Below are positions 25,139 to 56,575 of a stretch of DNA of 64,000 bases, one piece after another. The stretch is taken from the NCBI GenBank assembly GCA_003249935.1, contig QKHT01000075.1:2602-66601 (forward strand), read 5' to 3'. Position numbers and translations under genes: made by a program. This DNA is from Bacteroidota bacterium (GTDB taxonomy: Bacteria > Bacteroidota > Bacteroidia > Bacteroidales > UBA5342). How positions within the stretch are numbered: position 1 is the stretch's first letter; every line of letters starts with the position of its first letter. Below the pieces are notes generated by a model. That model worked only from the letters and a program-made list of their open reading frames with translations. It was not told the DNA's origin and did not search any database.

Positions 25139-26158
25139 ATGATTAGATTTGCAAATACATATTATTTATACTTATTGCTGTTAATACCACTTTTTGTTTT
25201 GGCATATATTGTTATGTTGCGCAAACGAAAAAGAGCCCTTGATAGCTTTGGTGAAACCCGTCTGATTGAGCAGCTTGCACCGGATGTGCATCGGTTCAGA
25301 CCAATTATAAAATTTGGTTTGTTTTTAATGGCATTTACGGCATGGATTTTTGTGCTGGCCCGTCCTCAAATGGGGTCGAAGCTACAACAGGTAAAACGAA
25401 AGGGTATTGAGCTGATGATTTGTCTCGATGTCTCAAATTCGATGTTGGCTCAAGATTATTCGCCCAACCGACTGGAGAAAGCCAAACAGGCTGTGTCTCG
25501 GATTATTGACAAATTACAGGATGATAAAGTTGGGCTGATCGTATTTGCCGGCGAGGCATACACGCAAATGCCAATAACTACCGATTTTTCATCGGCTAAG
25601 CTATTTTTGTCGACCATCAATCCCGGAATGGTACCTTCGCAGGGCACTGCAATTGGTGAAGCTATTGGTTTGGCAATGAATTCGTTCGGACCGGAAGGCA
25701 GTGCCTCTCGTGCGGTTATCGTAATAACCGATGGCGAAAACCACGAAGATAATGCTGAGGAAATGGCCGCTAAAGCTAAAGAAAAAGGAATTGTTGTTCA
25801 TACCATTGGTATTGGTGATCCGCAGGGCGTGCCGATTCCGATGGGTGCCAATGGTTCATTCCTAAAAGATAATGAAGGCAATGTGGTTGTAACGAAACTC
25901 GATGAGGAAACACTTAAAAAAGTGGCCGCTGCCGGCGGTGGTATTTATATGCGGTCTGCAAATACATCTTCGGGAATAAATGCACTTTTTAATGAAATTG
26001 ATAAAATGCAACGCGCCGATATCGAATCGCGTGTATACAGTGAGTACGAAGAACAGTTTCAGTGGATTGCATGGATTGCACTCATACTGCTGATGGCCGA
26101 AATTTATTTACTTGAGCGTAAAAACAAGTACTTGTCTAAAATAAAGCTTTTCAAATGA
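25139..26158 (+). CDS. batB: VWA-domain aerotolerance protein BatB
   Basis: Same architecture as BatA (DVSNSM MIDAS motif, flanking TM helices). Confidence 0.85.
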   Translation: MIRFANTYYLYLLLLIPLFVLAYIVMLRKRKRALDSFGETRLIEQLAPDVHRFRPIIKFGLFLMAFTAWIFVLARPQMGSKLQQVKRKGIELMICLDVSNSMLAQDYSPNRLEKAKQAVSRIIDKLQDDKVGLIVFAGEAYTQMPITTDFSSAKLFLSTINPGMVPSQGTAIGEAIGLAMNSFGPEGSASRAVIVITDGENHEDNAEEMAAKAKEKGIVVHTIGIGDPQGVPIPMGANGSFLKDNEGNVVVTKLDEETLKKVAAAGGGIYMRSANTSSGINALFNEIDKMQRADIESRVYSEYEEQFQWIAWIALILLMAEIYLLERKNKYLSKIKLFK

Positions 26159-26922
26159 AACAATATAAAGTATTTATTGCAATTTCCATTTTCGTTTTTT
26201 CGGGGTTGAACCTTGCAGCTCAAAAAGCAAATGGTTACATAAGGAAAGGTAACAGTGCTTATGATAAACAAAATTATACCGAGGCCGAACTCGATTATCG
26301 TAAGGCTGTTGAAAGTAGTCCACGGTCGTACGAAGCGCAATTTAATCTGGGTGCCTCGCTTATAAAACAAAAAAAATTTAAAGAAGCTGCCGAGCAGTTG
26401 CAAAGTATAAGTGGTGCAACTACCGATAAAAAAAAGCTTGGTGCATTGTATCATAATTTGGGGAATGCCTTGCTGGAAGGTAACGAACTCGAAAAAAGTG
26501 TGGAGGCTTATAAACAAGCTTTGCGAAACAATCCTTCGGACGATGAAACCAGATATAATTTGGCCTATGCGCTCGAAAAGTTAAAAAAACAGCAACAACA
26601 GCAGCAACAACAGCAGCAACAAAATAAAGACCAAAATAAAGACCAAAAGGATCAGAAGGACGATAAAAAAGATCAGAAGGATCAGAAGGATCAGAAAGAT
26701 CAGAAAGATCAGAAAGATCAGAAAGATCAGAAAGATCAACAAAATAAGGATCAGAAAAAAGATGAAAACCAACAACAGCAGCAACAGCAACAAAAGGTAG
26801 AAAAGAAAGATGCCGAACGTTTATTGCAAGCTTTGCAACAGGATGAGAAAAATGTAAAAGAAAAGGTACAGGCTCAGGAAATGCAGCAAGCAAAACAACG
26901 GAATTCTGATAAAAACTGGTAG
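26155..26922 (+). CDS. batC: TPR protein BatC with a long Q/K/D low-complexity tail
   Basis: Signal peptide and TPR repeats, then QQQQQQQQQQQNKDQNKDQKDQKDDKKDQKDQKDQKDQKDQKDQKDQQNKDQ.... Confidence 0.75.
   Translation: MKQYKVFIAISIFVFSGLNLAAQKANGYIRKGNSAYDKQNYTEAELDYRKAVESSPRSYEAQFNLGASLIKQKKFKEAAEQLQSISGATTDKKKLGALYHNLGNALLEGNELEKSVEAYKQALRNNPSDDETRYNLAYALEKLKKQQQQQQQQQQQNKDQNKDQKDQKDDKKDQKDQKDQKDQKDQKDQKDQKDQQNKDQKKDENQQQQQQQQKVEKKDAERLLQALQQDEKNVKEKVQAQEMQQAKQRNSDKNW
26590..26795 (+). repeat. In-frame coding microsatellites (CAG/CAA runs; 9-bp GATCAGAAR x7 at 26671-26733)
   Basis: Read directly from the sequence. Seven contiguous GATCAGAAG/A units are flanked by poly-Gln codon runs. Confidence 0.9.
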
Positions 26923-43067: not shown

Positions 43068-43070
43068 CGG

Positions 43071-44870
43071 TTACTTTTTAATGCCAAATAGGGTGTTACC
43101 AGCTTTAATACACATAAAGCCATCGGCAAATGCCGGTGTTGTAAATACCTTGCCACCCATATCGTGTTCGGCTATTAATTCGAAGTTGTTGCCGGCTTTC
43201 ATAATGTGCATTGTTCCGCCCATGTCGGCCAAATATATTTTGCCATCGGCCAGTATTGGCGATGAGTAAAACCCTTCGCCAAAGTCGTTTTCCCAAAGCT
43301 TTTCGCCGTTAGTTTGGTCGTAGCAGGCTGCCATACCATACGATGTGGCTACAATTACCCAGTTGTCGGCAGCTAACGGGCTCGATACTTCGGCGAGATA
43401 TTCGCTCGACTCCCAGAGTTCGGAGGCGGTGCCGTTGGTTGGATTAATGGCTGCAAATTTAGCATATTCGTTTACGGCAAACACCTTACCGTTGGCATAA
43501 GCAGCCGATGGTCCGACTTCGCCGCTAAGTGAAGCGATTTTCCAGAGTTCTTTGCCACTTTCGGCATCGTATCCGGCCACCAAAGGGTCGGCCGTTAGTA
43601 CCAGTTGAACGGTGTTGTTTATTTTAGCAAGTATTGGCGACGACCACGAGATTTTTACGGCACGAACGGTTTCCCAAAGTTTTTCGCCGTTAAGCACATT
43701 AAATGCCAGCAGTTTACCGCCTTTACCGGTATCATACTGTACATACAATTTGTTTTCAAGCAGTTGTAACGATGATGAGTGGCCGTAATGATTGGTCGGT
43801 ACGCCGATGTTGATGGTCCATAGTGGTTCGCCATTTACTGTATATGCAGCCAAATCGCCTGTGGCAAAAATGGCGTAAACCCTTTGCCCATCGGTGGCTA
43901 AAGTGGGTGCGGATAGTCCTGTATCGTCGGTGACTTTTGGCGGTGAGGCCGGCGAGCCGGCTGCTTTTTCTATCTCTTTTTGCCATAGTATTTTGCCCGA
44001 ATTTTTGTCGATACAAAACAACGAACGTTTTTTTGCATCGGCACCCGCCACGAAAATTTTGCTATCCCAGATTATCGGCGAGTTAAATCCATGCAATGGT
44101 AACACTGTTTTCCATGCTATATTTTTTCCTGAAGCCACATCCCAATCGGTCGGTGTGTTTTTGGCGTAACTCACACCTTGCCCCCATGGCCCGCGAAACG
44201 TGGCGTGCTGCATTTTAAAATCAGCGAATGTTGCAAATCGCGGTTCAGCCACCTTAGCAACCGGTTCAGCCAGAATTACGGTGTCGGACTTGGCCGTGGT
44301 ATTGGTTGCACTGTCGGCATTGGTAACGGTAATCACCTCTACTTTTGGTTGTTCTTGTACAATGGTATCGGCTACAGCCAACATTGCTGGAGTGTTTTTG
44401 TAAGTGTCGAAATAGGTTTTGGAACCCATTACACCCCAAAGTGCTGCTAAAATAAGCAACAAGGCACCAATATTTATAGCCCTTTGAGTCTGTTTTTGTG
44501 TATCGCCAGTTGTCGTTTTTTCTTCGGGCTCGCCAATAATAGCAAAATGTTTGCTTAACCATCGCAAAGAGCCAAAGCAGACTATGCTACCAATAATAAG
44601 CAACAGTGCACCGGTATTGAGTTGCCATTGCGCCGTAAACCATGCTTTGCGGGCTATTAGGTCGAGATTGCGCACGGCCTCCATTAAATCGTGGTTGTTG
44701 GGGTCGTTCTTGAGTTGAGCCACAATGGACTCTAACGCTTTGTTTTCGACTGGGCTATGCGATTTTATCTGTATGTAATTTACAATAAGTAAAATGGCTA
44801 CGATAATAGAAAAAGCCCCGGATATACGGGCCACCCATTTTATGTTTTCAATTTTTTGTTCTTTCATCAC
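43071..44870 (-). CDS. Membrane-anchored PQQ-like (BamB-like) beta-propeller repeat protein
   Basis: Three N-terminal TM helices and a Thr/Ala-rich linker. These are followed by repeated G-K-x-L-W blades (GKILWQ, GEPLWT, GEKLWE, GKELWK, GEKLWE). Confidence 0.7.
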   Translation of the reverse strand: MMKEQKIENIKWVARISGAFSIIVAILLIVNYIQIKSHSPVENKALESIVAQLKNDPNNHDLMEAVRNLDLIARKAWFTAQWQLNTGALLLIIGSIVCFGSLRWLSKHFAIIGEPEEKTTTGDTQKQTQRAINIGALLLILAALWGVMGSKTYFDTYKNTPAMLAVADTIVQEQPKVEVITVTNADSATNTTAKSDTVILAEPVAKVAEPRFATFADFKMQHATFRGPWGQGVSYAKNTPTDWDVASGKNIAWKTVLPLHGFNSPIIWDSKIFVAGADAKKRSLFCIDKNSGKILWQKEIEKAAGSPASPPKVTDDTGLSAPTLATDGQRVYAIFATGDLAAYTVNGEPLWTINIGVPTNHYGHSSSLQLLENKLYVQYDTGKGGKLLAFNVLNGEKLWETVRAVKISWSSPILAKINNTVQLVLTADPLVAGYDAESGKELWKIASLSGEVGPSAAYANGKVFAVNEYAKFAAINPTNGTASELWESSEYLAEVSSPLAADNWVIVATSYGMAACYDQTNGEKLWENDFGEGFYSSPILADGKIYLADMGGTMHIMKAGNNFELIAEHDMGGKVFTTPAFADGFMCIKAGNTLFGIKK

Positions 44871-46150
44871 TCATTCGTTTTTGCAGGTATTTTTACCGGA
44901 CAATATTTAATGCAGCGGCCGCAACTCAAGCAATCGCCTTTATTCGGTGTATAATCGTTGGATTCGCGTCGCCTGAAAAGCCCGATTAAGGTGGTGCCAA
45001 TCACCAGTCCCATAAAACCGCCCAAAATGGTAGCTCCGGTTTTAAATTGCGGCATTATTTCGTTGGCCTTTTTTGTCAGGTTTTCGGCTGAACCACCACT
45101 GGCCACAAACGTACGAATATCGAGGTTGGCGGATGTTTTTAATATTTCAGGATTTTTGGTCATGAGGTTTGCCAGATATACATCGGGATGCGCGTTGGCC
45201 AATGCCGGATGCACCAAATAGCCGATGACGGCACCAAAAACAATAAAAATTGGGAGCATCAGTATATATCGGATAAACTTTTTTTGATTGATGGTTCGTT
45301 CTTTTTCTTTGCCGGTGGGCTTGTCAATGGCTTCGAACGGACACGATGATTCGCACAAACGGCAACTGATACATTCGGCAGGTGTTATAGCCATGTGCCG
45401 CCAGGCAAATTGTGAAATATGTTTGAGTAGTACGCCATACGGGCAAATAAACCGGCAATAGGGCCGTGCTACAACCATGCCGATAAGCAAAAGGCAAATG
45501 CCAATCATTACGATGGCAAAGGGCCCGTCGAGACGGTATATGGCAATAAAGGGATCGAACCGGCAAATAATAAAATCGCTGCCCGTAGCGGCATAAAGTA
45601 CCGCCAACCCAAGGTAGAGATACGGAAAAAGACCGAAGCTTTTTCGGGCCCAAAGGGGTATCTCTATGGGTTTTAAGATTAGTAAATCCTGAATGACGCC
45701 TAGTGGACAAGCCCCGGCGCAAAAGGTTCGACCGAAAAACAAGGCAAACAACAATGGCAGTAAAAAAAAGCCCAACGTAACCCACGAAATGGAATAAGCC
45801 GGCGAGGCAAATGCCAATGCTATATTTTGTATGGAACCTACTGAGCAAATGCAACCATGGCGCACGAAGCCAAACCATATTAACGAAAATAGTGACATGG
45901 CTAATATGCCTTTTCGCGACCGTTTTTTGAGCAGAAACCATGTGGTAAGGCCCAGAACTAAAGCTAAAATGCCCAGATCGAGCCACTGCATCGTCATGCC
46001 GCGTGGTTCGGGCGTAGTGGGTACCGGCTGGGTGTATCCGTTTTCGAATTCGGGCTTCGGAAAGCGTTGTATGCCTTGTGCAATTGCCGAAATGAATTGT
46101 GAACCAAATATCAGTATGGTTATAATGAAGTAATAAATACGGTTTTTCAT
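44867..46150 (-). CDS. NapH/MauN-like polytopic membrane iron-sulfur protein
   Basis: Signal-like N-terminus and multiple TM helices. It has CxxxCP motifs (FCAGACPLG, CRFICPYG) and two CxxCxxCxxxCP ferredoxin motifs (CISCRLCESSCP, CLSCGRCIKYCP). ATGA overlap with the downstream gene. Confidence 0.7.
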   Translation of the reverse strand: MKNRIYYFIITILIFGSQFISAIAQGIQRFPKPEFENGYTQPVPTTPEPRGMTMQWLDLGILALVLGLTTWFLLKKRSRKGILAMSLFSLIWFGFVRHGCICSVGSIQNIALAFASPAYSISWVTLGFFLLPLLFALFFGRTFCAGACPLGVIQDLLILKPIEIPLWARKSFGLFPYLYLGLAVLYAATGSDFIICRFDPFIAIYRLDGPFAIVMIGICLLLIGMVVARPYCRFICPYGVLLKHISQFAWRHMAITPAECISCRLCESSCPFEAIDKPTGKEKERTINQKKFIRYILMLPIFIVFGAVIGYLVHPALANAHPDVYLANLMTKNPEILKTSANLDIRTFVASGGSAENLTKKANEIMPQFKTGATILGGFMGLVIGTTLIGLFRRRESNDYTPNKGDCLSCGRCIKYCPVKIPAKTNE

Positions 46151-46152
46151 AA

Positions 46153-46722
46153 CTACTTTGAATCGGATTTCGGCAGTGAGCCTTTGATTTTGTATGGTTG
46201 CGAGGCAGGCACTCTACTGATGGCATCGGATGGGCAAACGCGGGCAATGGCGCATTGGTTGCAATTAACGCAAATATTATGGCGTATTTGTAAATGCAAC
46301 GATCCGTTGCCAAAGTCGGTGCAGCCTTTTACACATTTGGCACAGCCTATACACAATGGCTCGTCGATAACGTATTCGAAATAGGGCTCTTCGATGTATT
46401 TTCTGTTAATAGCGGCGGTGGGGCAGAGCTGACTTTCGGCTGCAGTGCTGATATTGGCATCAGGTTTCAAATAACCGCCGCAAAGGTCGCAATAACCGCA
46501 AACATCGTAGGCATGCACGCATTTTACTGCCGAAGGACGCAGTACGCAATCGGTAGCGCATCGGCCGCATTGGGTGCATTTAAACGGGTCTATTTGCCAC
46601 ACTGTACCTTCGGCTGTGGCATGTTTTGCAGCCATAATTGCTGTGGCACCAAGGGTTACCCCCAATGCTACACGGGTGCCGCTTTTGAAAAAGCCCCGTC
46701 GGTTGGTTTTATTTGCTGCCAT
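46153..46722 (-). CDS. Tat-exported NapG-like poly-ferredoxin (four Cys clusters)
   Basis: Twin-arginine signal NRRGFFKSG...AKHATA and Cys motifs CTQCGRCATDC, CGYCDLCGG, CIGCAKCVKGC and CVNCNQCAIARVCP. Confidence 0.75.
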   Translation of the reverse strand: MAANKTNRRGFFKSGTRVALGVTLGATAIMAAKHATAEGTVWQIDPFKCTQCGRCATDCVLRPSAVKCVHAYDVCGYCDLCGGYLKPDANISTAAESQLCPTAAINRKYIEEPYFEYVIDEPLCIGCAKCVKGCTDFGNGSLHLQIRHNICVNCNQCAIARVCPSDAISRVPASQPYKIKGSLPKSDSK

Positions 46723-46921
46723 GACGTAATGGTTGTGCCTGTGGTTTACTGCATGCTCTTAAAAATGAACATTTGGCGCATTCGGGTGCTTCGTCGCAAC
46801 CCGTAGCCGATACTTTGTCGGTTTTAACCATATACCACACCGCACCACCCAACAGCGCAAACAAGCTGGTGCGACCAATGGTATCTGCAAATTGTCGCCG
46901 ATTTATCTTTTTATTCCACAT
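46709..46921 (-). CDS. 70-aa protein with a Tat-like RRQF motif, one TM helix and a C-x5-C-x2-C-x5-C motif
   Basis: MWNKKINRRQFADTIGRTSLFALLGGAVWYMV...CDEAPECAKCSFLRAC. It is the first gene of the operon and overlaps the next gene by 14 nt. Confidence 0.5.
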   Translation of the reverse strand: MWNKKINRRQFADTIGRTSLFALLGGAVWYMVKTDKVSATGCDEAPECAKCSFLRACSKPQAQPLRHGSK

Positions 46922-46947
46922 TTCCCTTGTATTAATACCTAACTTTT

Positions 46948-46955
46948 CAAAAATA
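46948..46955 (-). promoter_or_regulatory. Candidate -7 box (TATTTTTG on the minus strand) for the redox operon
   Basis: CAAAAATA on the plus strand is the reverse complement of TAnnTTTG, about 27 nt upstream of the ATG at 46921. Confidence 0.35.
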
Positions 46956-47038
46956 GCAACCTTGGTGGTTAATTGAAACTATTTCAACCGATTTGTGTCG
47001 CTTTTTGTGTCTATTTTTATTGGTTATGTATAATAGAG

Positions 47039-47183
47039 TGCCTGCGGCGTTGATGGCCTTCGGCGTTTATGGCCTTCGGCGTTTATAGCCTTCGGCTGTT
47101 TATGGCCTTTGGCGTTGATGGCCTTTGGCGTTGATGGCCTATGGCGTTGATGGCCTGCGGCGTTGATGGCCTGCGGCGTTTAT
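47039..47183. repeat. Nine head-to-tail copies of a 16-bp unit (GGCCTNNGGCGTTKAT; one 17-bp unit)
   Basis: Units begin at 47039, 47055, 47071, 47087, 47104, 47120, 47136, 47152 and 47168. The variants are CTGCGG, CTTCGG, CTTTGG and CTATGG. There are no spacers between units. Confidence 0.95.
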
Positions 47184-47191
47184 TGTTGCGG

Positions 47192-48325
47192 TTAAACCGG
47201 ATTGGATTTGTGGATTTCGTCGTCGAGTATTTTGTACAGAATGTCCTCGGATTTAGATTGTTTCGCATCGTGAAACCAAAAGGTGAGCATGTGATTGTCG
47301 GCGCATTTTTCTAGTATGCGTGCGTTGGGTTTGTGAAATGTGATTAATATCGCTTTAGCACCTAATCCTCCGCAAAGCTTGGCTACGTTATGAAACTTAT
47401 CGATGTCTTTAATATCGAATACGGCAGTTTTACACTCAACAAAAACTAATTTGGAGCCGGTATTCACGACCATGTCAATTTCGTTTTTAGCCAAACCATC
47501 GGCGTATTCGATAATCAGATTGCTGACTAATTCTTTTGTTTTAGTCCATCGTGACAGGATTTCGGCCACTTTATATTCGAACCATTGTGTGTTGAAAATG
47601 AGCGGATAAAACAAATTTCCAGTAAATACATAAATCTCTGGTGGTGCTAATAATCCGTGATAAAAACTGATTTTTACCTCTTTAAATTCTTTATTCCAAC
47701 TTAATACAGAATGTGGCCTGTTGATATTTATTTCGAAACTTTCTGTTAACGAACCATTACTGTCTTGAATGGTATTTCGGTACGCCTTCAATAGATTTTT
47801 ATACTGGTTTTTTGTAGTATAAAGCATTTCTATGGTTTCTACGCCGTTGGTGCAGTAGTAGGTCTCTTCGCAATGTGGGTCGTAATTGCGTATGGTTTGA
47901 CCCGAATAGGCAATATGATTTTCGATGGATAAAAATGAGGTGAGTGGGTGAGTTTTGTTTTCGTGCAGGAAATGGATGAACCCGTTTTGGTCGATATGAT
48001 ACACAATGCCTTGATACTTACTTGTAAAAACCGAATAGAGGGCCAACGACATCATTTTGGTTCCGCCCGAAATATTTACAAACCATTGGCAGTCGGTGTA
48101 TTCATCTGCAATATGTTGTATTTGTTCGCACAGCGAAAAAAAATCGTGTACCTGATAGGCCAATTGCAACACAGATTCGGTGGACGCTGCTTTCTGAATT
48201 TTATTAGCCATGGTAAAGGTTTCCTTACTGTGAAATAGAATATTCAGGTGGCAGTTAAACTCGATGATGCCCTGAATAACTGGCAGTGGTTGACCGCCAA
48301 TGGTCGAAATCTGTATGGTTTTCAT
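47192..48325 (-). CDS. Card1/Can2-like effector: CARF sensor domain plus a PD-(D/E)xK nuclease domain (DUF1887-type)
   Basis: 377 aa. N-terminus: ISTIGGQPLPV and NISGGTKMMSLAL, which are CARF/DUF1887 hallmarks. C-terminus: EIDMVVNTGSKLVFVECKT, i.e. D-x12-E-x-K. Confidence 0.7.
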   Translation of the reverse strand: MKTIQISTIGGQPLPVIQGIIEFNCHLNILFHSKETFTMANKIQKAASTESVLQLAYQVHDFFSLCEQIQHIADEYTDCQWFVNISGGTKMMSLALYSVFTSKYQGIVYHIDQNGFIHFLHENKTHPLTSFLSIENHIAYSGQTIRNYDPHCEETYYCTNGVETIEMLYTTKNQYKNLLKAYRNTIQDSNGSLTESFEININRPHSVLSWNKEFKEVKISFYHGLLAPPEIYVFTGNLFYPLIFNTQWFEYKVAEILSRWTKTKELVSNLIIEYADGLAKNEIDMVVNTGSKLVFVECKTAVFDIKDIDKFHNVAKLCGGLGAKAILITFHKPNARILEKCADNHMLTFWFHDAKQSKSEDILYKILDDEIHKSNPV

Positions 48326-48337
48326 TCTGTGTACTGT

Positions 48338-48703
48338 TTAATAGGCTCTGAATTGCACAAATTCGAAATGAGTGGTTTTGCTGCCATCGGCATTGTCTGT
48401 TACGTTGCGTCGGGTGGTAGAGGCTATACAGTCGATGCCAATGCTTTTTAAACGGGTAATCAGCGCAAAACAGAAGGTCATTTCGCCCATAAGATGCACT
48501 GCAAAGGCACCTGAATTTTCGGTGGCCAAAAGTGTCCTGATTTTTTGCTCGTACTGTTCGGCCAAAAATTCTATATCATCGGTTTTTGCTGCGGGATCTA
48601 TTACCGGAAACGCTATATCGTGGATTGAACCATACGCTGCGGCTGCTTTACGCTGCGGTTCACTCCATAATGTACTTGGATGGTTGCTTAGATTGATTAA
48701 CAT
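48338..48703 (-). CDS. Small (121 aa) soluble alpha/beta protein; possibly a Csx20-type stand-alone CRISPR-accessory or ring-nuclease-like protein
   Basis: MLINLSNHPS..W...Q start and alternating hydrophobic strand/helix pattern. Its stop lies 12 nt upstream of the Card1-like start. The family assignment is from memory only. Confidence 0.4.
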   Translation of the reverse strand: MLINLSNHPSTLWSEPQRKAAAAYGSIHDIAFPVIDPAAKTDDIEFLAEQYEQKIRTLLATENSGAFAVHLMGEMTFCFALITRLKSIGIDCIASTTRRNVTDNADGSKTTHFEFVQFRAY

Positions 48704-48782
48704 GATGTAGTGTTTTTCTTAATATTTGGCAAGGTTTATACCATTTGGAAAGAAAAATTAATTCGAATTTCGATGGCAGATT

Positions 48783-49121
48783 TTAATCTTCGTTTAAATA
48801 CGTTTCAACTTCACTTTTTAGTTTGGGTAGATGATTGGAAATGATCCCCCAAATAATTACTTCATCGACTTTATCATATCCATGAATCACCCAGTTTCTT
48901 GTGTCTACAATTTTCCGGGCATGGGTTAGCACAAAATCGGGGTCTATCTTTAAAATCCGATTGACTGCTTCGCCAATAATTTCTATTTCGCGTTCAATTG
49001 CTCTACGCAGCAGTTTATTATTTTGATATTCCATGAAATTTCGCTCGCTACCCAAATAGTCGAATACCGATTCGATAGAGATATGTATATCGTATAGATA
49101 TTTATTGATTTCACGCCTCAT
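48783..49121 (-). CDS. hepT: HepT-like HEPN (DUF86) toxin
   Basis: Rx4H motif in VDTRNWVIHGYD. About 112 aa from the ATG at 49121. It overlaps the upstream MNT gene by 11 nt. Confidence 0.8.
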   Translation of the reverse strand: MRREINKYLYDIHISIESVFDYLGSERNFMEYQNNKLLRRAIEREIEIIGEAVNRILKIDPDFVLTHARKIVDTRNWVIHGYDKVDEVIIWGIISNHLPKLKSEVETYLNED

Positions 49122-49419
49122 ACAACAACACTTTAGATTCATTAATGCTTTGAATGAAATATGGATTAGATAGTGATTTTTCGGTAATAATATCTATATC
49201 GCGATTAAATAGCTCTCTTAATTGGTAATGCAATAAAAAGTAATTGTTTGTATAATCGGCTGTATTAAGGTTGTCTGAAAAAGAAATAAGAAAATCGAGA
49301 TCACTATTGTCGTTGAATTTTTCGGACACAACCGAACCAAAAGCATAAAGTCGTTTTATGCTGAGCGCTTTACACAATTGTTGCAAAACTTCGCGTTGCT
49401 CTTCTATAATGGGTTGCAT
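49111..49419 (-). CDS. mnt: MNT-like minimal nucleotidyltransferase antitoxin
   Basis: LYAFGSVVSEKFNDNSDLDFLISF, i.e. the G-S-x(n)-D-x-D Pol-beta NTase motif. The start is set at the ATG at 49419. Confidence 0.8.
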   Translation of the reverse strand: MQPIIEEQREVLQQLCKALSIKRLYAFGSVVSEKFNDNSDLDFLISFSDNLNTADYTNNYFLLHYQLRELFNRDIDIITEKSLSNPYFIQSINESKVLLYEA

Positions 49420-49502
49420 GCTATTTTTTTTCAAATTTAATGAATTCTTAGTTGATTGCAATTGGTTGATACATTAATTCCATCGGTACAGAGCGATGGG
49501 CT

Positions 49503-50741
49503 TTATTGCAAATCTAAATTCAATATTTCTTTAGTTAAATTCATGTATTTCAAAAGCCTATCTTTAAAATGACCAACTGGTTTTGGGTTTTGACGTATTC
49601 CGGCATGATTTAAATCATTTCGGCCTCCTTGTGACAATGAAATAAAAACATTTTCAGTTAGATTCTTTTTATATGGCAGATCAAATACTAACCGGGCAAT
49701 TTCAGTTTCTGGATTAATTTCACTCGGTTCTTTAATTTTACGATGCCTGACTTCAAATTTTTCAAATTTATTAATTGAAAGGCAGCCGGTTACAATATCT
49801 CTGTTGAGGGTTTGTACCCAATCTTGAACTCCTATCTCTATTAGTATGTACGATACAATGAATTCTTGCAGTAATGTTATCCCTTGTTGAATTAAATTAT
49901 GTTCTATACAAAATTCAACAGCCCGAAACCCATTTAGAACATCATTAGACTGAAATTTTGTTACTTTCTTTTGAATTTTATCGATAAGTGGATCGAATGC
50001 CGGATTTTCCAGATTGACATTTTCTAAAAATGATACCACTTCTTTTGCACTATTTCCTGAGAAAAGATTTATTCCACGGCATTCATTAATTTCATTCACA
50101 AATCTATTAAGACTATCGCTATTATTGTCTTCAAGTAATAGAGTTATTTCATCTGTGTTCCCTGATTTTAGAAACATCTTTGCTGCAAAAGTCCAATCTT
50201 GCAATATTGACAACGAAGTTAAGTTGACAATAGGTGCAATATTATCTGAATTTTTGGCTTCATAATTACCATATGTAATAGATTTAATTTCAATTTTCTT
50301 TAGAAGTTTAGAATAATTATTGAGAACCAAAACCAACATTGGTAAATACCTAAAACCATGAGTTATATCAAAATATAATTCATCATCTTGTTGAAAAAGG
50401 CTGAATATATTTCTGAATATCTCCCATATTTCATGTTCCGTATTACCGTTTTTAATTGCAACAGGAACGATATCAAATGGTATATTCATACTCAATATTT
50501 TCGTTTGAAGCCCCTCATTAATACCATGGCCATTATCCATCCAGTTTTTCGAGTAGGAACCATTCACGCCTTCCGTCACGAAAATGTATGCAATATCATT
50601 TGGCGTAAATATTGATTTATATTTTTCAAGCATTGCAACTTGAATATAATTTGTAGAAGTGGCGGTAAATGATTCATCGGAATAAATACAATCTCTGTAA
50701 TTTGTTGAGCCTAAAACCGACATAAATACTTTTCTTGCCAT
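49503..50741 (-). CDS. csx1: Csx1-family CARF-HEPN effector (DxTHG motif protein)
   Basis: From the ATG at 50741: MARKVFMSVLGST (CARF strand 1), DITHGFRYLP (DxTHG motif) and C-terminal GGRNDLNHAG (Rx4H HEPN RNase motif). Confidence 0.75.
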   Translation of the reverse strand: MARKVFMSVLGSTNYRDCIYSDESFTATSTNYIQVAMLEKYKSIFTPNDIAYIFVTEGVNGSYSKNWMDNGHGINEGLQTKILSMNIPFDIVPVAIKNGNTEHEIWEIFRNIFSLFQQDDELYFDITHGFRYLPMLVLVLNNYSKLLKKIEIKSITYGNYEAKNSDNIAPIVNLTSLSILQDWTFAAKMFLKSGNTDEITLLLEDNNSDSLNRFVNEINECRGINLFSGNSAKEVVSFLENVNLENPAFDPLIDKIQKKVTKFQSNDVLNGFRAVEFCIEHNLIQQGITLLQEFIVSYILIEIGVQDWVQTLNRDIVTGCLSINKFEKFEVRHRKIKEPSEINPETEIARLVFDLPYKKNLTENVFISLSQGGRNDLNHAGIRQNPKPVGHFKDRLLKYMNLTKEILNLDLQ

Positions 50742-50863
50742 AACCTGTTTATTTAAGGGTGCATATTTTTTTTTCGAAGCCAAAGTACAAAAAAAATGTT
50801 TTGTGGCGGTGGGGGTAATGGTTAAAATAGTGGGATTGAGATGCAAAATTGTGTTTTTTGAAC

Positions 50864-52387
50864 ATGGTACTTGGTGGCATACGAATTATGGTTATTTTTG
50901 AGGCCGTTAAATGCTCAATTCAAGACGTACTATGGCCGAAAAAAAATCCTTCGAAATTGGTGCTATCGCCTTCGCAGAAACGCATCTTCGATTTGTTTCA
51001 AATCTTTATAAAATCGCCACAACAACAGGTTTTTATTTTAAATGGATTTGCCGGGACGGGAAAAACCACATTGGTGTATGAGTTTGTGAATTATTTAGAG
51101 CGCGAATCCATCAATTTCTTTTTGTTGGCATCAACCGGACGTGCCGCTAAAGTCATTTCGTCGAAAACCGGATATATTGCCAAAACGGTTCATAGCAGAA
51201 TATATCGGTTCACCGAACTGAATCAGTCGCTCGAAGATCTGTCCAACGAATACCAAAAAGCACAAACCGAATATACAAAGCGAAATCATGGACAGTTGAG
51301 TCTGATGTTCGAATTGATGTCGGTAGATCAACAGAGCGAGGATCGAAATGTATATATTGTAGATGAAGCTTCGATGGTGGCCGATGTAACGGATGCGCAT
51401 TCGTCGTTTGCAGAGTTTGGTAACGGTAACTTGGTGGCCGATTTGTTTAAGCACGATTACAAAGCCAAGTTTGTTTTTGTAGGCGATCCTTGTCAGTTGC
51501 CGCCTGTAAATCAGGTTATTTCTCCGGCGTTGTCTAAGAGTCATCTCGAAACAAAATACCGAAAAAGCGTTATCATGGGCAGTTTAACCGAAATTCACCG
51601 TCAGAAAGAGACCAATGGTATTATTCTGGCGGCATCGGGGCTTCGAAAATTGTATGGTAATCCCTCTACTGCCAAATGGCCACCCATACCGCTCAAAGGG
51701 TTCAAAAATATAATACTCGAAACCAATCATTTTACCCTGATCAATGAATACATCCATTATATTAAAACCTATGGATACAATAAAAGTACCTTAATAGCCC
51801 AAAGCAACAGGGTTTGTTCCGAAATAAACGGAAATATTCGCAGCGTCCTTTTTAATAATCCATCGGGGGTGGTTATTGTCGATTTGCTGATGGTGGTACA
51901 AAATAACTACATTGTGCCGCTGGTGAATGGCGATTTGGTAAAGGTTGTGGCTATTGGTACATCCGAATATCGCGCCAGCATCCGGTTTATAAATGTCACC
52001 GTAGAGTCCCTGGATTCCGGGGTTCAGCACGAAACACTACTGATTGAGAGTATGCTGGCCGATTTAACACTGAATTTAAACGATGAACAACATAAACAAC
52101 TATTCATCGATTTTTACCGACGTATGAAAGCCATAGGTATCGAACAAAAAACTGACGCTTTCAAAAAAAGGATATTATCGGATGCTTACCTCAATGCTTT
52201 GCGTTGCAGTTACGGGTACGCTTTAACTTGCCACAAAACGCAGGGTGGGGAGTGGGATGAGGTTTTTCTCTATCTCGACAATAAAATTTATGGCATCAAG
52301 CAACCCGGATTCTATCAATGGCTTTATACTGCCGTTACACGGGCTAAAGAAAATTTGCATGTCGTAAACGATTGGTTTATTAAGTAG
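50864..52387 (+). CDS. RecD/TraA-like SF1 helicase (AAA_30 plus UvrD_C_2 layout)
   Basis: Walker A GFAGTGKTT, Walker B IVDEASMV, GDPCQLPPV, EIHRQ, and CHKTQGGEWDEVF. The start is ambiguous (ATG at 50864 or 50888; the ORF-track TTG is at 50849). Confidence 0.8.
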   Translation: MVLGGIRIMVIFEAVKCSIQDVLWPKKNPSKLVLSPSQKRIFDLFQIFIKSPQQQVFILNGFAGTGKTTLVYEFVNYLERESINFFLLASTGRAAKVISSKTGYIAKTVHSRIYRFTELNQSLEDLSNEYQKAQTEYTKRNHGQLSLMFELMSVDQQSEDRNVYIVDEASMVADVTDAHSSFAEFGNGNLVADLFKHDYKAKFVFVGDPCQLPPVNQVISPALSKSHLETKYRKSVIMGSLTEIHRQKETNGIILAASGLRKLYGNPSTAKWPPIPLKGFKNIILETNHFTLINEYIHYIKTYGYNKSTLIAQSNRVCSEINGNIRSVLFNNPSGVVIVDLLMVVQNNYIVPLVNGDLVKVVAIGTSEYRASIRFINVTVESLDSGVQHETLLIESMLADLTLNLNDEQHKQLFIDFYRRMKAIGIEQKTDAFKKRILSDAYLNALRCSYGYALTCHKTQGGEWDEVFLYLDNKIYGIKQPGFYQWLYTAVTRAKENLHVVNDWFIK

Positions 52388-52404
52388 GTTTGAACCCAAA
52401 AAAA

Positions 52405-52496
52405 CAAAATCGGGGTCGAAATATAAACTTTCGTTCATTTTATATACGCTCGCGTTCATTTCGACCCCGATCACGGTTGTTTTGACCCCGATTTTG
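52405..52496. repeat. Nested/alternative inverted repeats sharing the GACCCCGAT core
   Basis: Segment 52409-52422 is a perfect 14-bp complement of 52458-52471. Segment 52405-52417 is a perfect 13-bp complement of 52484-52496. The element starts 18 nt after the helicase stop. Confidence 0.8.
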
Positions 52497-52648
52497 GATG
52501 AGAATAATAAACTGATTTTGGATTTTTTGGTTTGAAGGTGTTTATTTCAACTGAAAAGTATATCAGTAGTACAAATTCATCGAAAGCAAAAGGTTCAGAA
52601 AAAAATAGTTATACTTTTTTAACCTTTATAAAAATGATACTATAATAA

Positions 52649-53008
52649 ATGGTTGATTCTGCGATTAATGAGGCTGTTGGAAATTTAATGTCGATACAGC
52701 CGTTTTTGTTTAAAAACATTGTTAAACCCATTCGTGCCAAAATGCCGCTACCTCCGGGTGCAATTCACGTATTAGCGTTATTAAAACATGGCGACCCAAT
52801 ATCCATGTCGGAAATAGGCAAAAAATTAGGCGTACCGAAACCGCATGTCACGGGATTGATCGACAAGTTAATTGCGGCAAAATATGTGGAGCGACTAAAC
52901 GATAAAAACGACCGAAGAGTTGTAAACATCCGAATAACGGCCTTTGGTGCCGAATGTCTGAACAATATAAAGAACGACATCTCAGAAAGTTTAAAGTTCA
53001 AATTATAG
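52649..53008 (+). CDS. MarR-family regulator ended by an in-frame TAG; the frame stays open for 30 more MarR-like codons to 53101
   Basis: The wHTH region is ISMSEIGKKLGVPKPHVTGLIDKLIAAKYVERLNDKNDRRVVNIRIT. After the TAG (53006-53008) the same frame reads AFDAKKIEALRAATQLLKETLIEISESDGI*. Confidence 0.75.
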   Translation: MVDSAINEAVGNLMSIQPFLFKNIVKPIRAKMPLPPGAIHVLALLKHGDPISMSEIGKKLGVPKPHVTGLIDKLIAAKYVERLNDKNDRRVVNIRITAFGAECLNNIKNDISESLKFKL

Positions 53009-53121
53009 GCATTCGATGCAAAAAAGATTGAAGCGTTACGAGCAGCGACACAATTATTAAAAGAGACACTTATAGAAATAAGTGAATCGGACGGCATTTA
53101 AACAGGAAAAATAGGTTACAA

Positions 53122-54165
53122 ATGAATAAGGAAAAACAAGTTAAGGTTTACCTGCCACTTGCGCTGGTAGTGTTATTGGTAAGTGTGGCCGGCGTAATGT
53201 GGTATCGCGACTATTCGCGATACATCACCACCGATGATGCACACATTGAATCCGATTATGTATCGGTAAGTCCCAGGTTATTAGGACGCATAAGTCATTT
53301 ATATTTTGAAGAGGGCGACACTGTAAAAAGTGGCACTTTATTGGCCGAATTGGACACCACCGAATTAGTGGCGCAACGACAACAAGCCGAGGCAATGAAA
53401 TCGCAAGCCGATGCAGGCATAAAGTTAGCAGATGCCAAGTATCAGTACGACAAGAAAAATGTCGAAGTGCTTTCCTATGGTCTCAAACATGCGAAGGACG
53501 ATTTTTCGAGAGCAAAAAATCAGTTCGCTGGTCAGGTCATTTCGCAAGAGCAATACGACCATGCCAAAAATACCCTTGAAACAGCGAAAGCCCAATTTGA
53601 TGCTTCAAACACGCAATTGAAAGTATCTTTAGCCCAAATTGGTTCAGCCCAAAAAACGATTGAAAGCAGTGAGGCACAAATTAATGTGATAAATACACAG
53701 ATTAATAACACAAAATTAGTGGCACCATTTGAAGGCCAAATATCTAAAAAGTGGCTTCAAGCAGGCGATGTGGTTCAACCGGCACAGGCCATTTACACTA
53801 TAAATAACAACAAATTTCGGGTTATTGTATATCTCGAAGAGACTAAAATCAGCAATCTGAAAATTGGACAAAATGCAGAATTTACCATTGATGCCTTTGC
53901 CAACAAAAAGTTTACAGGTAAAATTTACGCTATTGGCTCGGTTACAGCAAGCCAGTTTTCACTCATTCCACCGAATAATGCCTCAGGAAATTTTACAAAA
54001 ATAACACAAAGAGTGCCTATAAAAATTTCGATTGAACCATTGGAAGCCAATGCGGCATGCAAATTACTTTCGGGAATGTCGTGCATTTTACAACTGAAGT
54101 CGAAAATAGATTACAGTCTTAATTTATTACGGCTTACATTGGCCGAGGGAAACCAGATTTATTAA
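53122..54165 (+). CDS. HlyD/EmrA-type membrane fusion (periplasmic adaptor) protein
   Basis: N-terminal TM helix, a TDDAHIESDYV start to the lipoyl-like domain, a long coiled-coil (QAEA..QYD..) and a beta-barrel C-terminus. Confidence 0.85.
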   Translation: MNKEKQVKVYLPLALVVLLVSVAGVMWYRDYSRYITTDDAHIESDYVSVSPRLLGRISHLYFEEGDTVKSGTLLAELDTTELVAQRQQAEAMKSQADAGIKLADAKYQYDKKNVEVLSYGLKHAKDDFSRAKNQFAGQVISQEQYDHAKNTLETAKAQFDASNTQLKVSLAQIGSAQKTIESSEAQINVINTQINNTKLVAPFEGQISKKWLQAGDVVQPAQAIYTINNNKFRVIVYLEETKISNLKIGQNAEFTIDAFANKKFTGKIYAIGSVTASQFSLIPPNNASGNFTKITQRVPIKISIEPLEANAACKLLSGMSCILQLKSKIDYSLNLLRLTLAEGNQIY

Positions 54166-54170
54166 AACAC

Positions 54171-54203
54171 AAAAAAAGGATGGCCATTACAACCATCCTT
54201 TTT
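54171..54203. terminator. Bidirectional rho-independent terminator
   Basis: AAAAAAAGGATGG pairs with CCATCCTTTTT between convergent genes. Confidence 0.8.
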
Positions 54204-54227
54204 ATAATAAATATCCTTATTCAGGCA

Positions 54228-54899
54228 TTACTTCTTTAGTTTTTGAACAATATCGAACGCATCTTTCACCTTTTTGGTTATGATGCTGTATTCGCCCGAT
54301 TCGATGACCTCTTTTGGAAAAAGTTTCGAACCCAAACCCACACACGAAACACCCGCATCGAACCATGCCTTAAGGTTGTCGTAATCGGGAGAAACCCCAC
54401 CCGACGGCATAATTTTGGTCCAAGGACATGGGGCTTTAATGGCACTTACAAACGATGGACCACCCACTTCGGCACCCGGGAAAATTTTCACGATTTCCAC
54501 ACCCAATTCTTCGGCAAGGTTAATTTCGGAGAGTGTGCCACAACCCGGCATCCAAGCAATTTTACGACGGTTGCACACTTTTGCCATTTCGGGGTTCAAT
54601 GAGGGCGAAACAATAAAGTTAGCACCCAACTGAATATAGAGCGATGCAGTACCATTGTCGACAACCGACCCCACACCCATAATCATTTCGGGACACGCTT
54701 TGGCCACCCATTTATTCACTTCGGCAAATACCTCGTGGGCATATTCGCCACGGTTGGTGAACTCAAAAAGACGTGCACCACCATCGTAACACGCTTTTAC
54801 CACATTTTTTACGATGTTTGCATCCTTGTGGTAAAACAACGGCACAATACCAGTTTCAATTGCGGTATTGAGCACTTTTAATCTTTCAAATCTAGCCAT
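54228..54899 (-). CDS. eda: KDPG / 4-hydroxy-2-oxoglutarate aldolase
   Basis: 223-aa class I aldolase TIM barrel with typical motifs (FEFTNRG, VGSV, KIFPG, GGV). Confidence 0.9.
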   Translation of the reverse strand: MARFERLKVLNTAIETGIVPLFYHKDANIVKNVVKACYDGGARLFEFTNRGEYAHEVFAEVNKWVAKACPEMIMGVGSVVDNGTASLYIQLGANFIVSPSLNPEMAKVCNRRKIAWMPGCGTLSEINLAEELGVEIVKIFPGAEVGGPSFVSAIKAPCPWTKIMPSGGVSPDYDNLKAWFDAGVSCVGLGSKLFPKEVIESGEYSIITKKVKDAFDIVQKLKK

Positions 54900-55099
54900 T
54901 TCTATATGTATTACAGAGCATCACGACGCTAAGCATCGCTACTCACTAATTATTCTCTTTTATTTTCGTCCGAAATAACAAGCCGGGAACCGAGCCGAAT
55001 GAGCTTCGATTCGCCCAAAAGCGGCTCAAATTGTTCGAACTCCGAAATCGAATGCTGCAAAATCATTTCGACAAAAGTTTTAACCTCCACCGCTTCACG

Positions 55100-56188
55100 T
55101 CATTCTTGGCGAAACGATGTGATATAATACTCCAAATTCTCTTTAATTACGATGTCGATTGGGCTGTAATTCACCTTTTCGGGTATAATACCGGCAGATA
55201 AATAATGAAACAAACAAAGTATGGCATCGTAAGTCTGTGCCGATGTTTTTTGGCTGATGATAAAATCAATCACATTTCGGTTCAGATATTCGATATTATC
55301 GTCCAACAAATCGTATCCAATCAGTTTAATATCGGTCCGCTGCAGATTTTCGAGCACACGGGCAATTTTAAACCCTCGCGAACTGGGTACAAAAATACCA
55401 CCTGTCTTGGGGTAATCAGCCAAAAGCCTGGTTAGTTCATCAGCCGGTTCAGCCATATTAAGTAAATCTACCTCAGACTCAATCATTTTGGTTGAACCGG
55501 TGGAAATAGATTGTATGAACGCGATGAAACCCTGTACACGTTTTTTTATATGATGCGAAACAACCTTCCGATTAGCAAGCTTAAGCACCAGAATTACAGA
55601 ATCTTGAGCAATACATTGATACAATAGTTTGGCTGCCACTTCGCCACTTTTTACTGCATTTTGCCCAAAAAATGCCAATGGATTGCTACTCTCCAAATTT
55701 ATATCGAAAAAAACATACGGAATACCAAGTTGATCCAAATTGGCACAAAAAAGTTCGCACGACTGTTTAAATACAGGGTTAAGTGCAACACCATCAATCG
55801 ATTCAAGTACAATATTCTGAACCACAAAATCAAATTGCCGTTCATCAGTTGCATCAAAATCAAATGGGATAATCTGTACATTAAAATCGGCCAAAGCTTG
55901 TTCGGCCATTGGCATGCCCTGACGTAAAATGTGCCAATAGTGATTGCTTTCATCTTTTGCTGGAAGAAGAACGGCAATTCGGTACACTTTTTTTGAAGCA
56001 AGCGATTTGGCCAATAAATTGGGTTTATATCCCAATTCGTCAATCATTTGCAACACCTTTTTACGTGTATTTTCATTAATTTCGCCACGGTTGTGCAAAA
56101 CCCGGTCTATGGTTCCTACCGATACACCAGCCTTTAAAGCAATATCTTTAATCCTGACTTTATTTGAACCTTTTGGTTTCATAACCAT
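55100..56188 (-). CDS. LacI-family transcriptional regulator
   Basis: N-terminal HTH (RIKDIALKAGVSVGTIDRVLHNRG) and a periplasmic-binding-protein-like effector domain. Confidence 0.9.
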   Translation of the reverse strand: MVMKPKGSNKVRIKDIALKAGVSVGTIDRVLHNRGEINENTRKKVLQMIDELGYKPNLLAKSLASKKVYRIAVLLPAKDESNHYWHILRQGMPMAEQALADFNVQIIPFDFDATDERQFDFVVQNIVLESIDGVALNPVFKQSCELFCANLDQLGIPYVFFDINLESSNPLAFFGQNAVKSGEVAAKLLYQCIAQDSVILVLKLANRKVVSHHIKKRVQGFIAFIQSISTGSTKMIESEVDLLNMAEPADELTRLLADYPKTGGIFVPSSRGFKIARVLENLQRTDIKLIGYDLLDDNIEYLNRNVIDFIISQKTSAQTYDAILCLFHYLSAGIIPEKVNYSPIDIVIKENLEYYITSFRQE

Positions 56189-56234
56189 TTTCGATATCGT
56201 TTACGCACCCTGCAAAGATATAACTAATTTTTTA

Positions 56235-56258
56235 TTTACCGTGGACGCACACGGTAAA
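56235..56258. promoter_or_regulatory. Perfect palindrome TTTACCGTG-N6-CACGGTAAA; candidate operator
   Basis: Read directly from the sequence. It lies 47 nt upstream of the LacI-family start, in the 387-bp lacI/feoAB intergenic region. No T-run follows on either strand, so it is not terminator-like. Confidence 0.4.
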
Positions 56259-56575
56259 AATATATTATCGGTGATAAACGAAGGAAACTTAATACGCAAA
56301 AGGAATCATTAAGTGTTAGTGTGATTCAGTCGATACATTTCATTCTTTGAGGAATTATTACTAAAACCGACTCTTTTTCCCAATAAATAGGGATTGCAGA
56401 GACCAAATGATATAGGTAAATTTGCGACATTATATTCAAAATGGACATAAAAGCCAGATTACATTATTTTGCCACATATTTTTATTTCCAAATGGTAGCA
56501 ATAGGTGGCTATATTCGAAAACGGCTCATAGAATACTAACGGGCCATTAGGTTTGAACCAAAAGCGGTAAAGTGC

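Follow-up and report, generated by a model that had tools for sequence, protein, structure and literature searches.

The closest described counterparts of the locus reported here belong to the accessory arm of type III CRISPR-Cas systems. Effectors of the Can1-2 group are activated by cyclic tetra-adenylate (cA4) and are unable to degrade their own activator, and a ring nuclease is present in 66% of their loci. Csx20, the commonest ring nuclease of type III loci, accompanies cA4 effectors exclusively and has a particularly strong link to Csx1; for one member of the family, specific cleavage of cA4 has been shown experimentally (Hoikkala et al. 2024, bioRxiv 10.1101/2024.09.24.614671). In Bacteroidetes, a RecD-like helicase reported to bind Cas1 is encoded in cas1-CAPP_B-cas2 operons (PMC8211822). 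We have examined a six-gene island (positions 47192-52387) in a 64,000-nt stretch of the Bacteroidales genome GCA_003249935.1 (contig QKHT01000075.1, positions 2,602 to 66,601; hereafter the window), which carries can2, csx1, csx20 and a RecD-like helicase gene together with a MntA/HepT toxin-antitoxin (TA) pair and is not accompanied by any cas gene in the window (Table 1).

For each of the four core proteins (Can2, Csx1, Csx20 and the helicase) the nearest homologs were found inside complete type III loci and, to judge by protein similarity, the island almost certainly descends from the accessory part of such a locus in Bacteroidota. An earlier, sequence-only reading of the window had proposed either an accessory module that acts in trans for a distant type III locus or a CARF module wired to a different nucleotide source; with the nearest homologs of the four core genes all in complete type III loci, the first of these is the best supported. 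Overall, we consider it moderately probable that the island is a cA4 effector module that was displaced from a type III locus and is served in trans by a Cas10 encoded elsewhere, the odds that it functions in this way with a resident Cas10 at present being somewhat better than even. The same reading regarded the gene combination as one not known as a described system. This view did not stand, since four of the six genes make up a block that recurs and is already published, in which Csx1 and Csx20 are strongly associated and the helicase belongs to the cas1-CAPP_B-cas2 operon. The locus is an unusual placement of known parts, namely a rearranged accessory block with a TA insertion, and not a new defence system.

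The genomic context of the family was surveyed by scanning a Csx1 alignment against 185,579 species-representative genomes. The 61 loci obtained, nearly all of them from Bacteroidota and none from the source genome of the window, were annotated by tblastn, with the proteins of the window and a reference set of Cas proteins as queries, and by PADLOC, whose Cas7_IIId profile (a recurrent upstream block, with E down to 1e-198) served to recognise III-D loci. In 25 of the 27 loci that were well flanked (at least 8 kb on both sides), effector-complex genes of type III-A, III-D or III-B were present within 10 kb, the distance over which the effector complex was counted, and in the remaining two (L038 and L064) only adaptation genes were detected. 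Tabulated in this way by tblastn and PADLOC, the homolog neighbourhoods contained a cas-free context in none of the 27 well-flanked loci. One locus considered as a second orphan, L070 from Thermaurantimonas, was discarded because PADLOC showed WYL-Cmr1-Cas10b about 5 kb downstream. The Cas10 proteins of the loci that hold the nearest Can2 and Csx1 homologs keep their HD and GGDD motifs.

Gene order in the relatives follows a canonical arrangement: cas6b-cas10-csm2-5 (or the III-D or III-B equivalents), then can2-csx1-csx20, then RecD-like helicase-cas1-CAPP(Prim-Pol)-cas2 and finally the array. The loci that hold the nearest Can2 homologs begin with cas6b-cas10-csm2-csm3-csm4-csm5 and a Cad1-like deaminase or an AAA_14 protein, and continue with can2, csx20, a second can2, a PIF1/AAA_30 helicase, cas1, a ‘BT4734-like_N’ protein, cas2 and the array. 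Across the 61 loci csx1 is adjoined by csx20 in 55 and accompanied by the helicase gene in 35, by can2 in 21 and by MntA/HepT in none. Where csx20 follows csx1 (49 loci) the median gap is 12 nt and the distance is 96 nt or less in 47, and Csx1-Csx20 fusion proteins also occur; the helicase gene is downstream and co-directional in 33 of its 35 loci, and can2 is upstream in 21 of 21. The window departs from this arrangement on all three counts, with 799 nt between csx1 and csx20 that hold mntA-hepT, an inverted helicase gene upstream and can2 downstream. Set against Bacteroidota III-A, III-D and III-B loci with a CAPP_B operon, such as those of Mangrovibacterium sp. (GCA_041596335.1, JBFHIT010000031) and of a Dysgonamonadaceae bacterium (Zabrady et al. 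2021, PMC8211822), the island shares the same four families: can2, csx1 (TIGR02221), csx20 and the RecD-like helicase are 35%-62% identical, and domain architectures and catalytic motifs match. What it lacks are cas6b, cas10/csm2-5, cas1, the CAPP Prim-Pol, cas2 and the array; besides, its order is rearranged and the TA pair is inserted.

We then considered each protein in turn. Can2 matched the Pfam families CARF_Card1 (1.4e-10) and Card1_endonuc (5.4e-6), both over their cutoffs. The N-terminal CARF domain (PF23400) scored 41.7 bits against a cutoff of 24.6, with the GGQ..P, N..GGTK and DQN columns conserved, while the match of the C-terminal endonuclease domain (PF09002) was marginal, at 26.5 bits against 26.4; the PADLOC profile CARF4--CARF_PDDEXK covered the full length of the protein (1.6e-71). 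In addition, Can2 aligned end to end with the Can2 of a Dysgonamonadaceae bacterium (PDB 8BAO, E=1.4e-38; about one third of the residues identical, as estimated by eye from the alignment) and matched the Can2 of PDB 7BDV (2.4e-11), and the D...ECK motif (EID...VECKT) was in register with both. The protein thus has in common with these two structures and with Card1 (6WXW) a full-length CARF plus PD-(D/E)xK architecture in which the GGxP, GGTK and D...ExK motifs are kept, and differs from the known Can2/Card1 proteins in that its gene is not beside a type III effector complex; a cA4-dependent nuclease activity is predicted for it. Since the window protein is an outgroup to the closest Can2 clade, a test of invariant positions against that clade is confounded, and a family-wide column test was used. 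In this test, which took the columns conserved to at least 85% among 53 relatives, Can2 kept 47 of 49, the same as the median of the family. Its closest homologs share 43-45% identity with it and are encoded in complete type III loci.

Csx1 scored over the cutoff for TIGR02221 (2.4e-25, 89.8 bits versus 76.25) and matched the DxTHG domain (TIGR02549, 2.1e-9) and PADLOC CARF2--CARF_HEPN (6.6e-96). Both DxTHGFR and R374-N-D-x-N-H379, which reads R374-N-D-L-N-H379 in the window, are invariant in a family alignment of 21 sequences that includes the window protein. The 16 closest relatives of Csx1 share 83 invariant positions; the window protein keeps 75 of them, a count that falls within the leave-one-out range of those relatives. 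The AlphaFold2 (AF2) model (pLDDT 87.6) found its best fold match in Marinitoga Csx1-Crn2, the cA4-bound form included (E=1.5e-14, TMq 0.67), followed by S. islandicus Csx1 and then T. thermophilus Csm6. With the Csx1-family RNases of Marinitoga (8Y6Z/8Y7G) and S. islandicus (6QZT) the protein shares the CARF-HTH-HEPN fold, DxTHG and Rx4H, and the presence of an adjoining or fused ring nuclease is a further likeness to Csx1-Crn2 and to the Csx1-Csx20 fusions. The ring nuclease of the window is Csx20, however, and not Crn2 as in Marinitoga, and an RNase activity dependent on cyclic oligoadenylate is predicted. The nearest full-length homologs of Csx1 on long contigs were 47-52% identical and a truncated one 55%; all of them are in type III loci, including those of a Mangrovibacterium and a Maribellus metagenome-assembled genome (MAG). 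No relatives of the family were found in IMG/VR viral contigs, and plasmids gave only distant, CRISPR-annotated matches. The profile families of Can2 (Card1-type) and Csx1 (TIGR02221/DxTHG) thus agree with the earlier assignment of both sensors to the CARF proteins, and the motifs quoted for them are all read in the translations: ISTIGGQPLPV, NISGGTKMMS and D-x12-ECK in Can2, and DITHGFRYLP and RNDLNH in Csx1.

The gene between can2 and hepT, previously described as a small Rossmann-like protein, is csx20. Its product matched PADLOC Csx20 at 6.9e-39, and Pfam PF27247 (MJ1673) on the identical gene, and is 58-62% identical to the Csx20 proteins encoded inside the type III loci L003 and L005; the score for the NCBIfam Csx20 equivalog was 30.6 bits, under the curated cutoff of 70. 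Foldseek matches of its AF2 model (pLDDT 94.4) in the PDB were weak (best E=2.7e-3), though dominated by CARF/SAVED proteins and by the Crn1 ring nuclease Sso2081, a trend that agrees with the published description of Csx20. The protein resembles the Csx20 of Hoikkala et al. in its strong hidden Markov model match and its linkage to Csx1 and Can2, and perhaps in a CARF-like alpha/beta fold, which was compared without a solved Csx20 structure. It differs in remaining under the NCBIfam cutoff; cleavage of cA4 is predicted for it.

The divergent helicase matched AAA_30 (7.4e-21) and UvrD_C_2 (1.4e-13) in Pfam, RecD2 (4.9e-30) and, in PADLOC, PDC-M16A (4.9e-115). Over its full length it is 35-37% identical to the helicases of L003 and L005 (E 4e-81 and 6e-85), and up to 46% identical to others, and the alignments keep Walker A (GTGKT), Walker B (DEAS) and motifs V and VI. 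By these alignments it falls in the ortholog class of the gene that precedes cas1-CAPP-cas2 in Bacteroidota type III loci. The sequence-only reading had counted the helicase as part of a signalling cassette. Its relatives are instead grouped with adaptation genes and not with the CARF arm: the RecD-like class sits in the cas1-CAPP_B-cas2 operon and is reported to bind Cas1 (PMC8211822), so that the helicase belongs with the adaptation genes. In the surveyed loci it accompanies both the effector block and cas1-CAPP-cas2, and in the window no cas1, CAPP or cas2 was found beside it. The PADLOC candidate system PDC-M16 consists of M16A and M16B; the helicase of the window resembles its first component and differs from it as a short form of about 500 aa without M16B, for which no match was obtained among the other ORFs (open reading frames) of the window.

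In this connection, we observed that three of the related loci (L038, 13152-16815; L009, 14275-18391; L007, 11231-13694) encode a longer helicase with a TOTE-type C-terminal domain followed by a DUF7017/PDC-M16B protein. PDC-M16 (M16A plus M16B) thus lies between csx20 and cas1 in some type III loci, for example in L038, which also has a prokaryotic Argonaute (pAgo) gene about 7.5 kb upstream. The link of PDC-M16 to CRISPR adaptation modules may merit a separate study.

Unlike the four genes above, the mntA-hepT pair has no counterpart in the related loci. HepT matched the Pfam HepT-like family (4.6e-18, 65.5 bits versus a cutoff of 23.5) and its translation carries the R-x4-H-x-Y motif as RNWVIHGY. 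MntA matched NTP_transf_2 (2.1e-12) and Polbeta (2.7e-12) in Pfam, PDC-S09 in PADLOC (5e-29) and MntA_antitoxin in NCBIfam (1.9e-11, under cutoff; the NCBIfam equivalog scores of both TA proteins were under cutoff), and carries the motif GS-x10-DxD, here GS-x10-DLD (GSVVSEKFNDNSDLD). The pair is therefore similar to type VII MntA/HepT (HEPN/MNT) systems in having a minimal nucleotidyltransferase (NTase) gene followed by an overlapping HEPN gene, the GSx10DxD and Rx4HxY motifs and Pfam scores over cutoff, and differs from them in its site inside a csx1-csx20 operon, which is shared by 0 of 61 relatives. Because MntA has 102 aa, its gene overlaps hepT by 11 nt and its motifs are those of canonical antitoxins, it can be taken for an ordinary type VII TA antitoxin. 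A marginal match of MntA to the PADLOC ‘oligonucleotide-cyclase’ profile (E=0.012) was also seen; a role as a signal-making cyclase was rejected on account of the size of the protein, the TA layout and its absence from every relative. As no homolog of MntA/HepT occurs in any of the 61 loci and the pair sits in a junction that normally measures 96 nt or less, mntA-hepT is, by comparison of the loci, a lineage-specific insertion in the csx1-csx20 junction, and not the designed partner of the cassette that had been suggested.

The next question is how isolated the island is. Its six ORFs are at the coordinates claimed earlier, the minus-strand gaps of 83, -11, 79 and 12 nt were reproduced and the spacer to the helicase gene, claimed to be ~120 bp, measures 122 nt. 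The absence of cas10/csm/cmr, cas1/2/6 and a CRISPR array from the 64 kb was likewise upheld by PADLOC and by an array search: no CRISPR-like repeat-spacer array was detected across the window, and the PADLOC scan of the other 53 plausible ORFs revealed no Cas10, Csm/Cmr, Cas1, Cas2, Cas6 or cyclase, its only matches being DprA (as ShosA), MotB/OmpA (as ZorB) and a MarR. Compared with a complete type III locus, the Cas10 cyclase palm and the Csm/Cmr subunits are missing from the 59 window ORFs and from 8.7 kb to the right, and the array, cas6, cas1 and cas2 from the window; nor, apart from the marginal match of MntA, did the 59 ORFs contain a CD-NTase, mCpol, GGDEF-type or other cyclase such as would mark CBASS or another cyclase-based signalling system. 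The additional 8.7 kb come from a Logan contig (run SRR7216773) that continues past the right end of the window with genes for peptidases, YjeF, MerR and UDP-glucose dehydrogenase, and there is no type III locus just outside the window in the stretch so covered. A second, independent Logan contig is 100% identical to positions 45185-57351 and crosses both island junctions; both junctions are therefore real and the island does not stem from misassembly. As exact sequences, Can2 and Csx1 are singletons, both encoded on one 80,304-bp contig (NCBI, JGI, Logan).

On one side the island is flanked by genes for NuoF-like and Fer4 proteins and a PQQ propeller, and on the other by marR-hlyD, a KDPG aldolase gene, lacI and feoAB. 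The first of these flanks is a redox cluster (40722-46921; NuoF-like flavoprotein, PQQ-type beta-propeller, two Fer4 proteins and a 70-aa ORF) with 47% GC. With the whole window at 0.40, the island lies at a sharp compositional boundary; within it the GC content is 0.31 for csx1, 0.33 for mntA, 0.36 for hepT, 0.41 for the helicase gene and 0.45 for csx20. Neither a tRNA, an Rfam family, a target-site duplication nor an insertion sequence (IS) was found at the island boundaries, and these contained no relic CRISPR repeat and no pseudogene.

Several candidates for further CRISPR-related elements were rejected. Weak CARF3/Csa3 matches that could have pointed to a third CARF protein correspond to a MarR at 52649-53008 and cover only the winged helix-turn-helix part of the models. 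The arrays of related loci (L005, 17986-21134; L008, 15458-17660; L031, 15954-16969; L065, 15766 onward) have repeats of ~36-37 nt whose 5′ halves differ and whose 3′ end, AAGGATTAAGAC, is conserved and presumably represents the CRISPR RNA (crRNA) 5′-handle recognised by Cas6b and the Csm complex. As for a relic repeat with this end, the sole match in the window (58259-58283) is inside the FeoB coding sequence and is thus a chance match. From the can2 stop codon to the point where the redox operon begins there are 270 nt, and these contain 8.8 head-to-tail copies of a 16-nt unit, GCCTTCGGCGTTGATG (47040-47180), which occurs nowhere else in the window (7 matches versus 0.01 expected) and whose RNA fold is not significant (z = -1.7). 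This tandem repeat was dismissed as a degenerate CRISPR array, being head-to-tail, without spacers, restricted to a single site in the window and without a significant fold.

If the island is indeed a displaced module served in trans, the following sequence of events can be proposed by analogy with characterised systems. A Cas10 complex encoded elsewhere would detect invader RNA and synthesise cA4, which would diffuse and bind the CARF domains of Csx1 and Can2, switching on the HEPN RNase of the former and the PD-(D/E)xK nuclease of the latter; the two activated enzymes would lead to growth arrest or to clearance of the invader, and Csx20 would break down cA4 and allow the cell to reset. The helicase, whose relatives bind Cas1, would stand outside this signalling arm as a leftover or as a trans-acting adaptation factor, and MntA/HepT would act on its own as a selfish or abortive-infection unit, and might in addition help to keep the island stable. 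Precedent exists in the 133 cyclase-positive, effector-less type III loci that are known and from which inter-locus signalling has been proposed, and CARF homologs are abundant outside CRISPR loci. The six ORFs are intact, with catalytic and ligand-binding motifs kept and no decay visible. Some observations weigh against this reading. No Cas10 is encoded in the window, which covers 47 kb on the left of the island and 11.6 kb on its right, or in the 8.7 kb further right, and from the 2430 matches of a Cas10 profile search two candidates with Logan and JGI sources proved to be from other samples. A cas-free context is very rare in the family (0/27) and fits loss or rearrangement equally well as in-trans working. 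Also, because no relative is closer than ~55% identity, intact ORFs cannot separate ongoing selection from recent orphaning.

For these reasons the explanation that competes most closely is that the island is a relic, in which the type III interference and adaptation genes were lost by deletion or rearrangement and what is left is a recently orphaned, functionless fragment without a cA4 source, perhaps kept by the addictive MntA/HepT. We regard this as possible but unlikely. It would account for the gene order, scrambled with respect to the 61 relatives, and for the absence of both flanking modules that normally abut the block; the TA insertion within the operon fits a relaxed constraint on csx1-csx20 coupling, and the helicase, having Cas1 as its known partner, has no obvious role without cas1. 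Break-up of this kind is seen among the relatives too, since two loci have lost the effector complex and kept the adaptation genes and a comparable fragment exists in L012 (the same as L018, CAVSIQ010000003.1), with no cas gene in 9 kb upstream. What speaks for function is that none of the six ORFs is shortened and that their catalytic and ligand-binding motifs are intact, that Can2 (47/49 columns) and Csx1 (75/83 positions) are as conserved as their relatives, and that relic repeats, IS elements and pseudogenes are missing from the boundaries. The choice between a module working in trans and a recent relic rests on gene intactness and precedent.

The fragment in L012/L018 deserves a separate comment. 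There, can2-csx20-truncated csx1 abuts two IS (DDE_Tnp_1) transposases at the contig end, and the MAG is labelled Actinomycetota, yet the genes are most similar to those of Bacteroidota; mis-binning or horizontal transfer could explain the mismatch.

A different possibility is that the CARF effectors sense a cyclic nucleotide that is not made by Cas10, supplied by another host cyclase, a phage or the adjacent MntA, so that the six genes would constitute a stand-alone defence cassette. No cas gene lies within the window or the 8.7 kb to its right, MntA belongs to the Pol-beta NTase superfamily and has the marginal cyclase match mentioned above, and the helicase family is a PADLOC defence candidate (PDC-M16A), all of which would be compatible with autonomy. 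The different nucleotide source nevertheless found no backing: the 59 ORFs of the window include no cyclase, MntA is a 102-aa minimal NTase in the standard TA layout with HepT, an ordinary type VII antitoxin that is absent from the 61 related loci and hence no conserved partner, the PDC-M16B partner is missing from the window, and the well-flanked relatives are CRISPR-linked in 27 of 27 cases. An autonomous, Cas10-independent cassette therefore has no positive support overall and is very improbable. We give as little weight to the related notion that an organism without any Cas10 keeps an intact module of two effectors plus a ring nuclease to sense cA4 or a related oligoadenylate from another source, which might be a different cyclase of the host, an element that invades the cell or a type III system carried by a mobile element in the same host. 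Lastly, it is hardly credible that CARF effectors with their ring nuclease, MntA/HepT and a helicase-based system are chance neighbours in a defence island with no shared history, for although MntA/HepT is clearly an independent insertion and the GC content of csx1, csx20 and the helicase gene differs, a homologous helicase accompanies csx1 in 35 of the 61 loci, lies downstream of csx1-csx20 in 33 of these 35 and is as similar to the copies in CRISPR loci (up to 46%) as the effectors are to theirs, and this frequency, position and similarity make shared descent of helicase and effectors far likelier than chance juxtaposition.

Table 1. Features of the island, in window coordinates. Gene starts are those of an independent gene call on identical DNA (Logan contig).
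Feature	Coordinates	Strand	Description
can2	47192..48325	-	CARF + PD-(D/E)xK nuclease, Can2/Card1 family, 377 aa
csx20	48338..48703	-	small CARF-like ring nuclease, predicted to degrade cA4, 121 aa
hepT	48783..49121	-	HEPN RNase toxin, type VII toxin-antitoxin, 112 aa; longest ORF to 49142
mntA	49111..49419	-	minimal nucleotidyltransferase antitoxin, 102 aa; longest ORF to 49461
csx1 (PGAP name csx2/TIGR02221)	49503..50741	-	CARF-HEPN ribonuclease, 412 aa
csx1-helicase divergent intergenic region	50742..50863	.	122 nt; promoters presumed
RecD-like SF1B helicase	50864..52387	+	507 aa; ATG at 50864; longest ORF from 50849

Other features were observed in the window. Immediately 3′ of the helicase gene, positions 52398-52496 form a complex inverted repeat with three copies of AAAATCGGGGTC(GAAA) in both orientations, which could be a terminator or a small repeat element; the 13-mer recurs inside hepT at 48932-48944. 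Further away, ORF 26155-26922 contains in-frame tandem repeats of 9 nt and 27 nt (AAAGATCAG and related units; 26588-26793) that would encode a low-complexity stretch rich in K, D and Q. This ORF is part of a run of co-directional genes that together carry VWA, DUF58, AAA_3 (MoxR), BatD and TPR domains, and the run resembles the Bacteroides aerotolerance (Bat) operon. The Bat-type domains and the named homologs of the island proteins point to a source in Bacteroidota, probably related to the Marinilabiliales or Prolixibacteraceae. Finally, a DprA homolog (DNA_processg_A) at 5033-6139 scored 3e-64 against PADLOC ShosA, with no match seen to a ShosT partner; it is probably a housekeeping DprA on which the ShosA model cross-hits, rather than a Shosta defence gene.

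The significance of the island depends on where its signal comes from. Should a Cas10 locus, especially an effector-less one, be present elsewhere in the genome, the island would offer a clear case, from nature, of cA4 signalling between loci in Bacteroidota, a process that has been proposed by large surveys and rarely documented for a specific pair of loci. Should the organism have no Cas10, type III accessory modules could persist as free-standing, cas-independent sensors, with MntA/HepT holding the island in the genome. Since cas genes nearly always accompany the csx1-csx20(-can2)-helicase block (no exception in 27 well-flanked loci), detached copies such as this one are informative on how type III loci break up.

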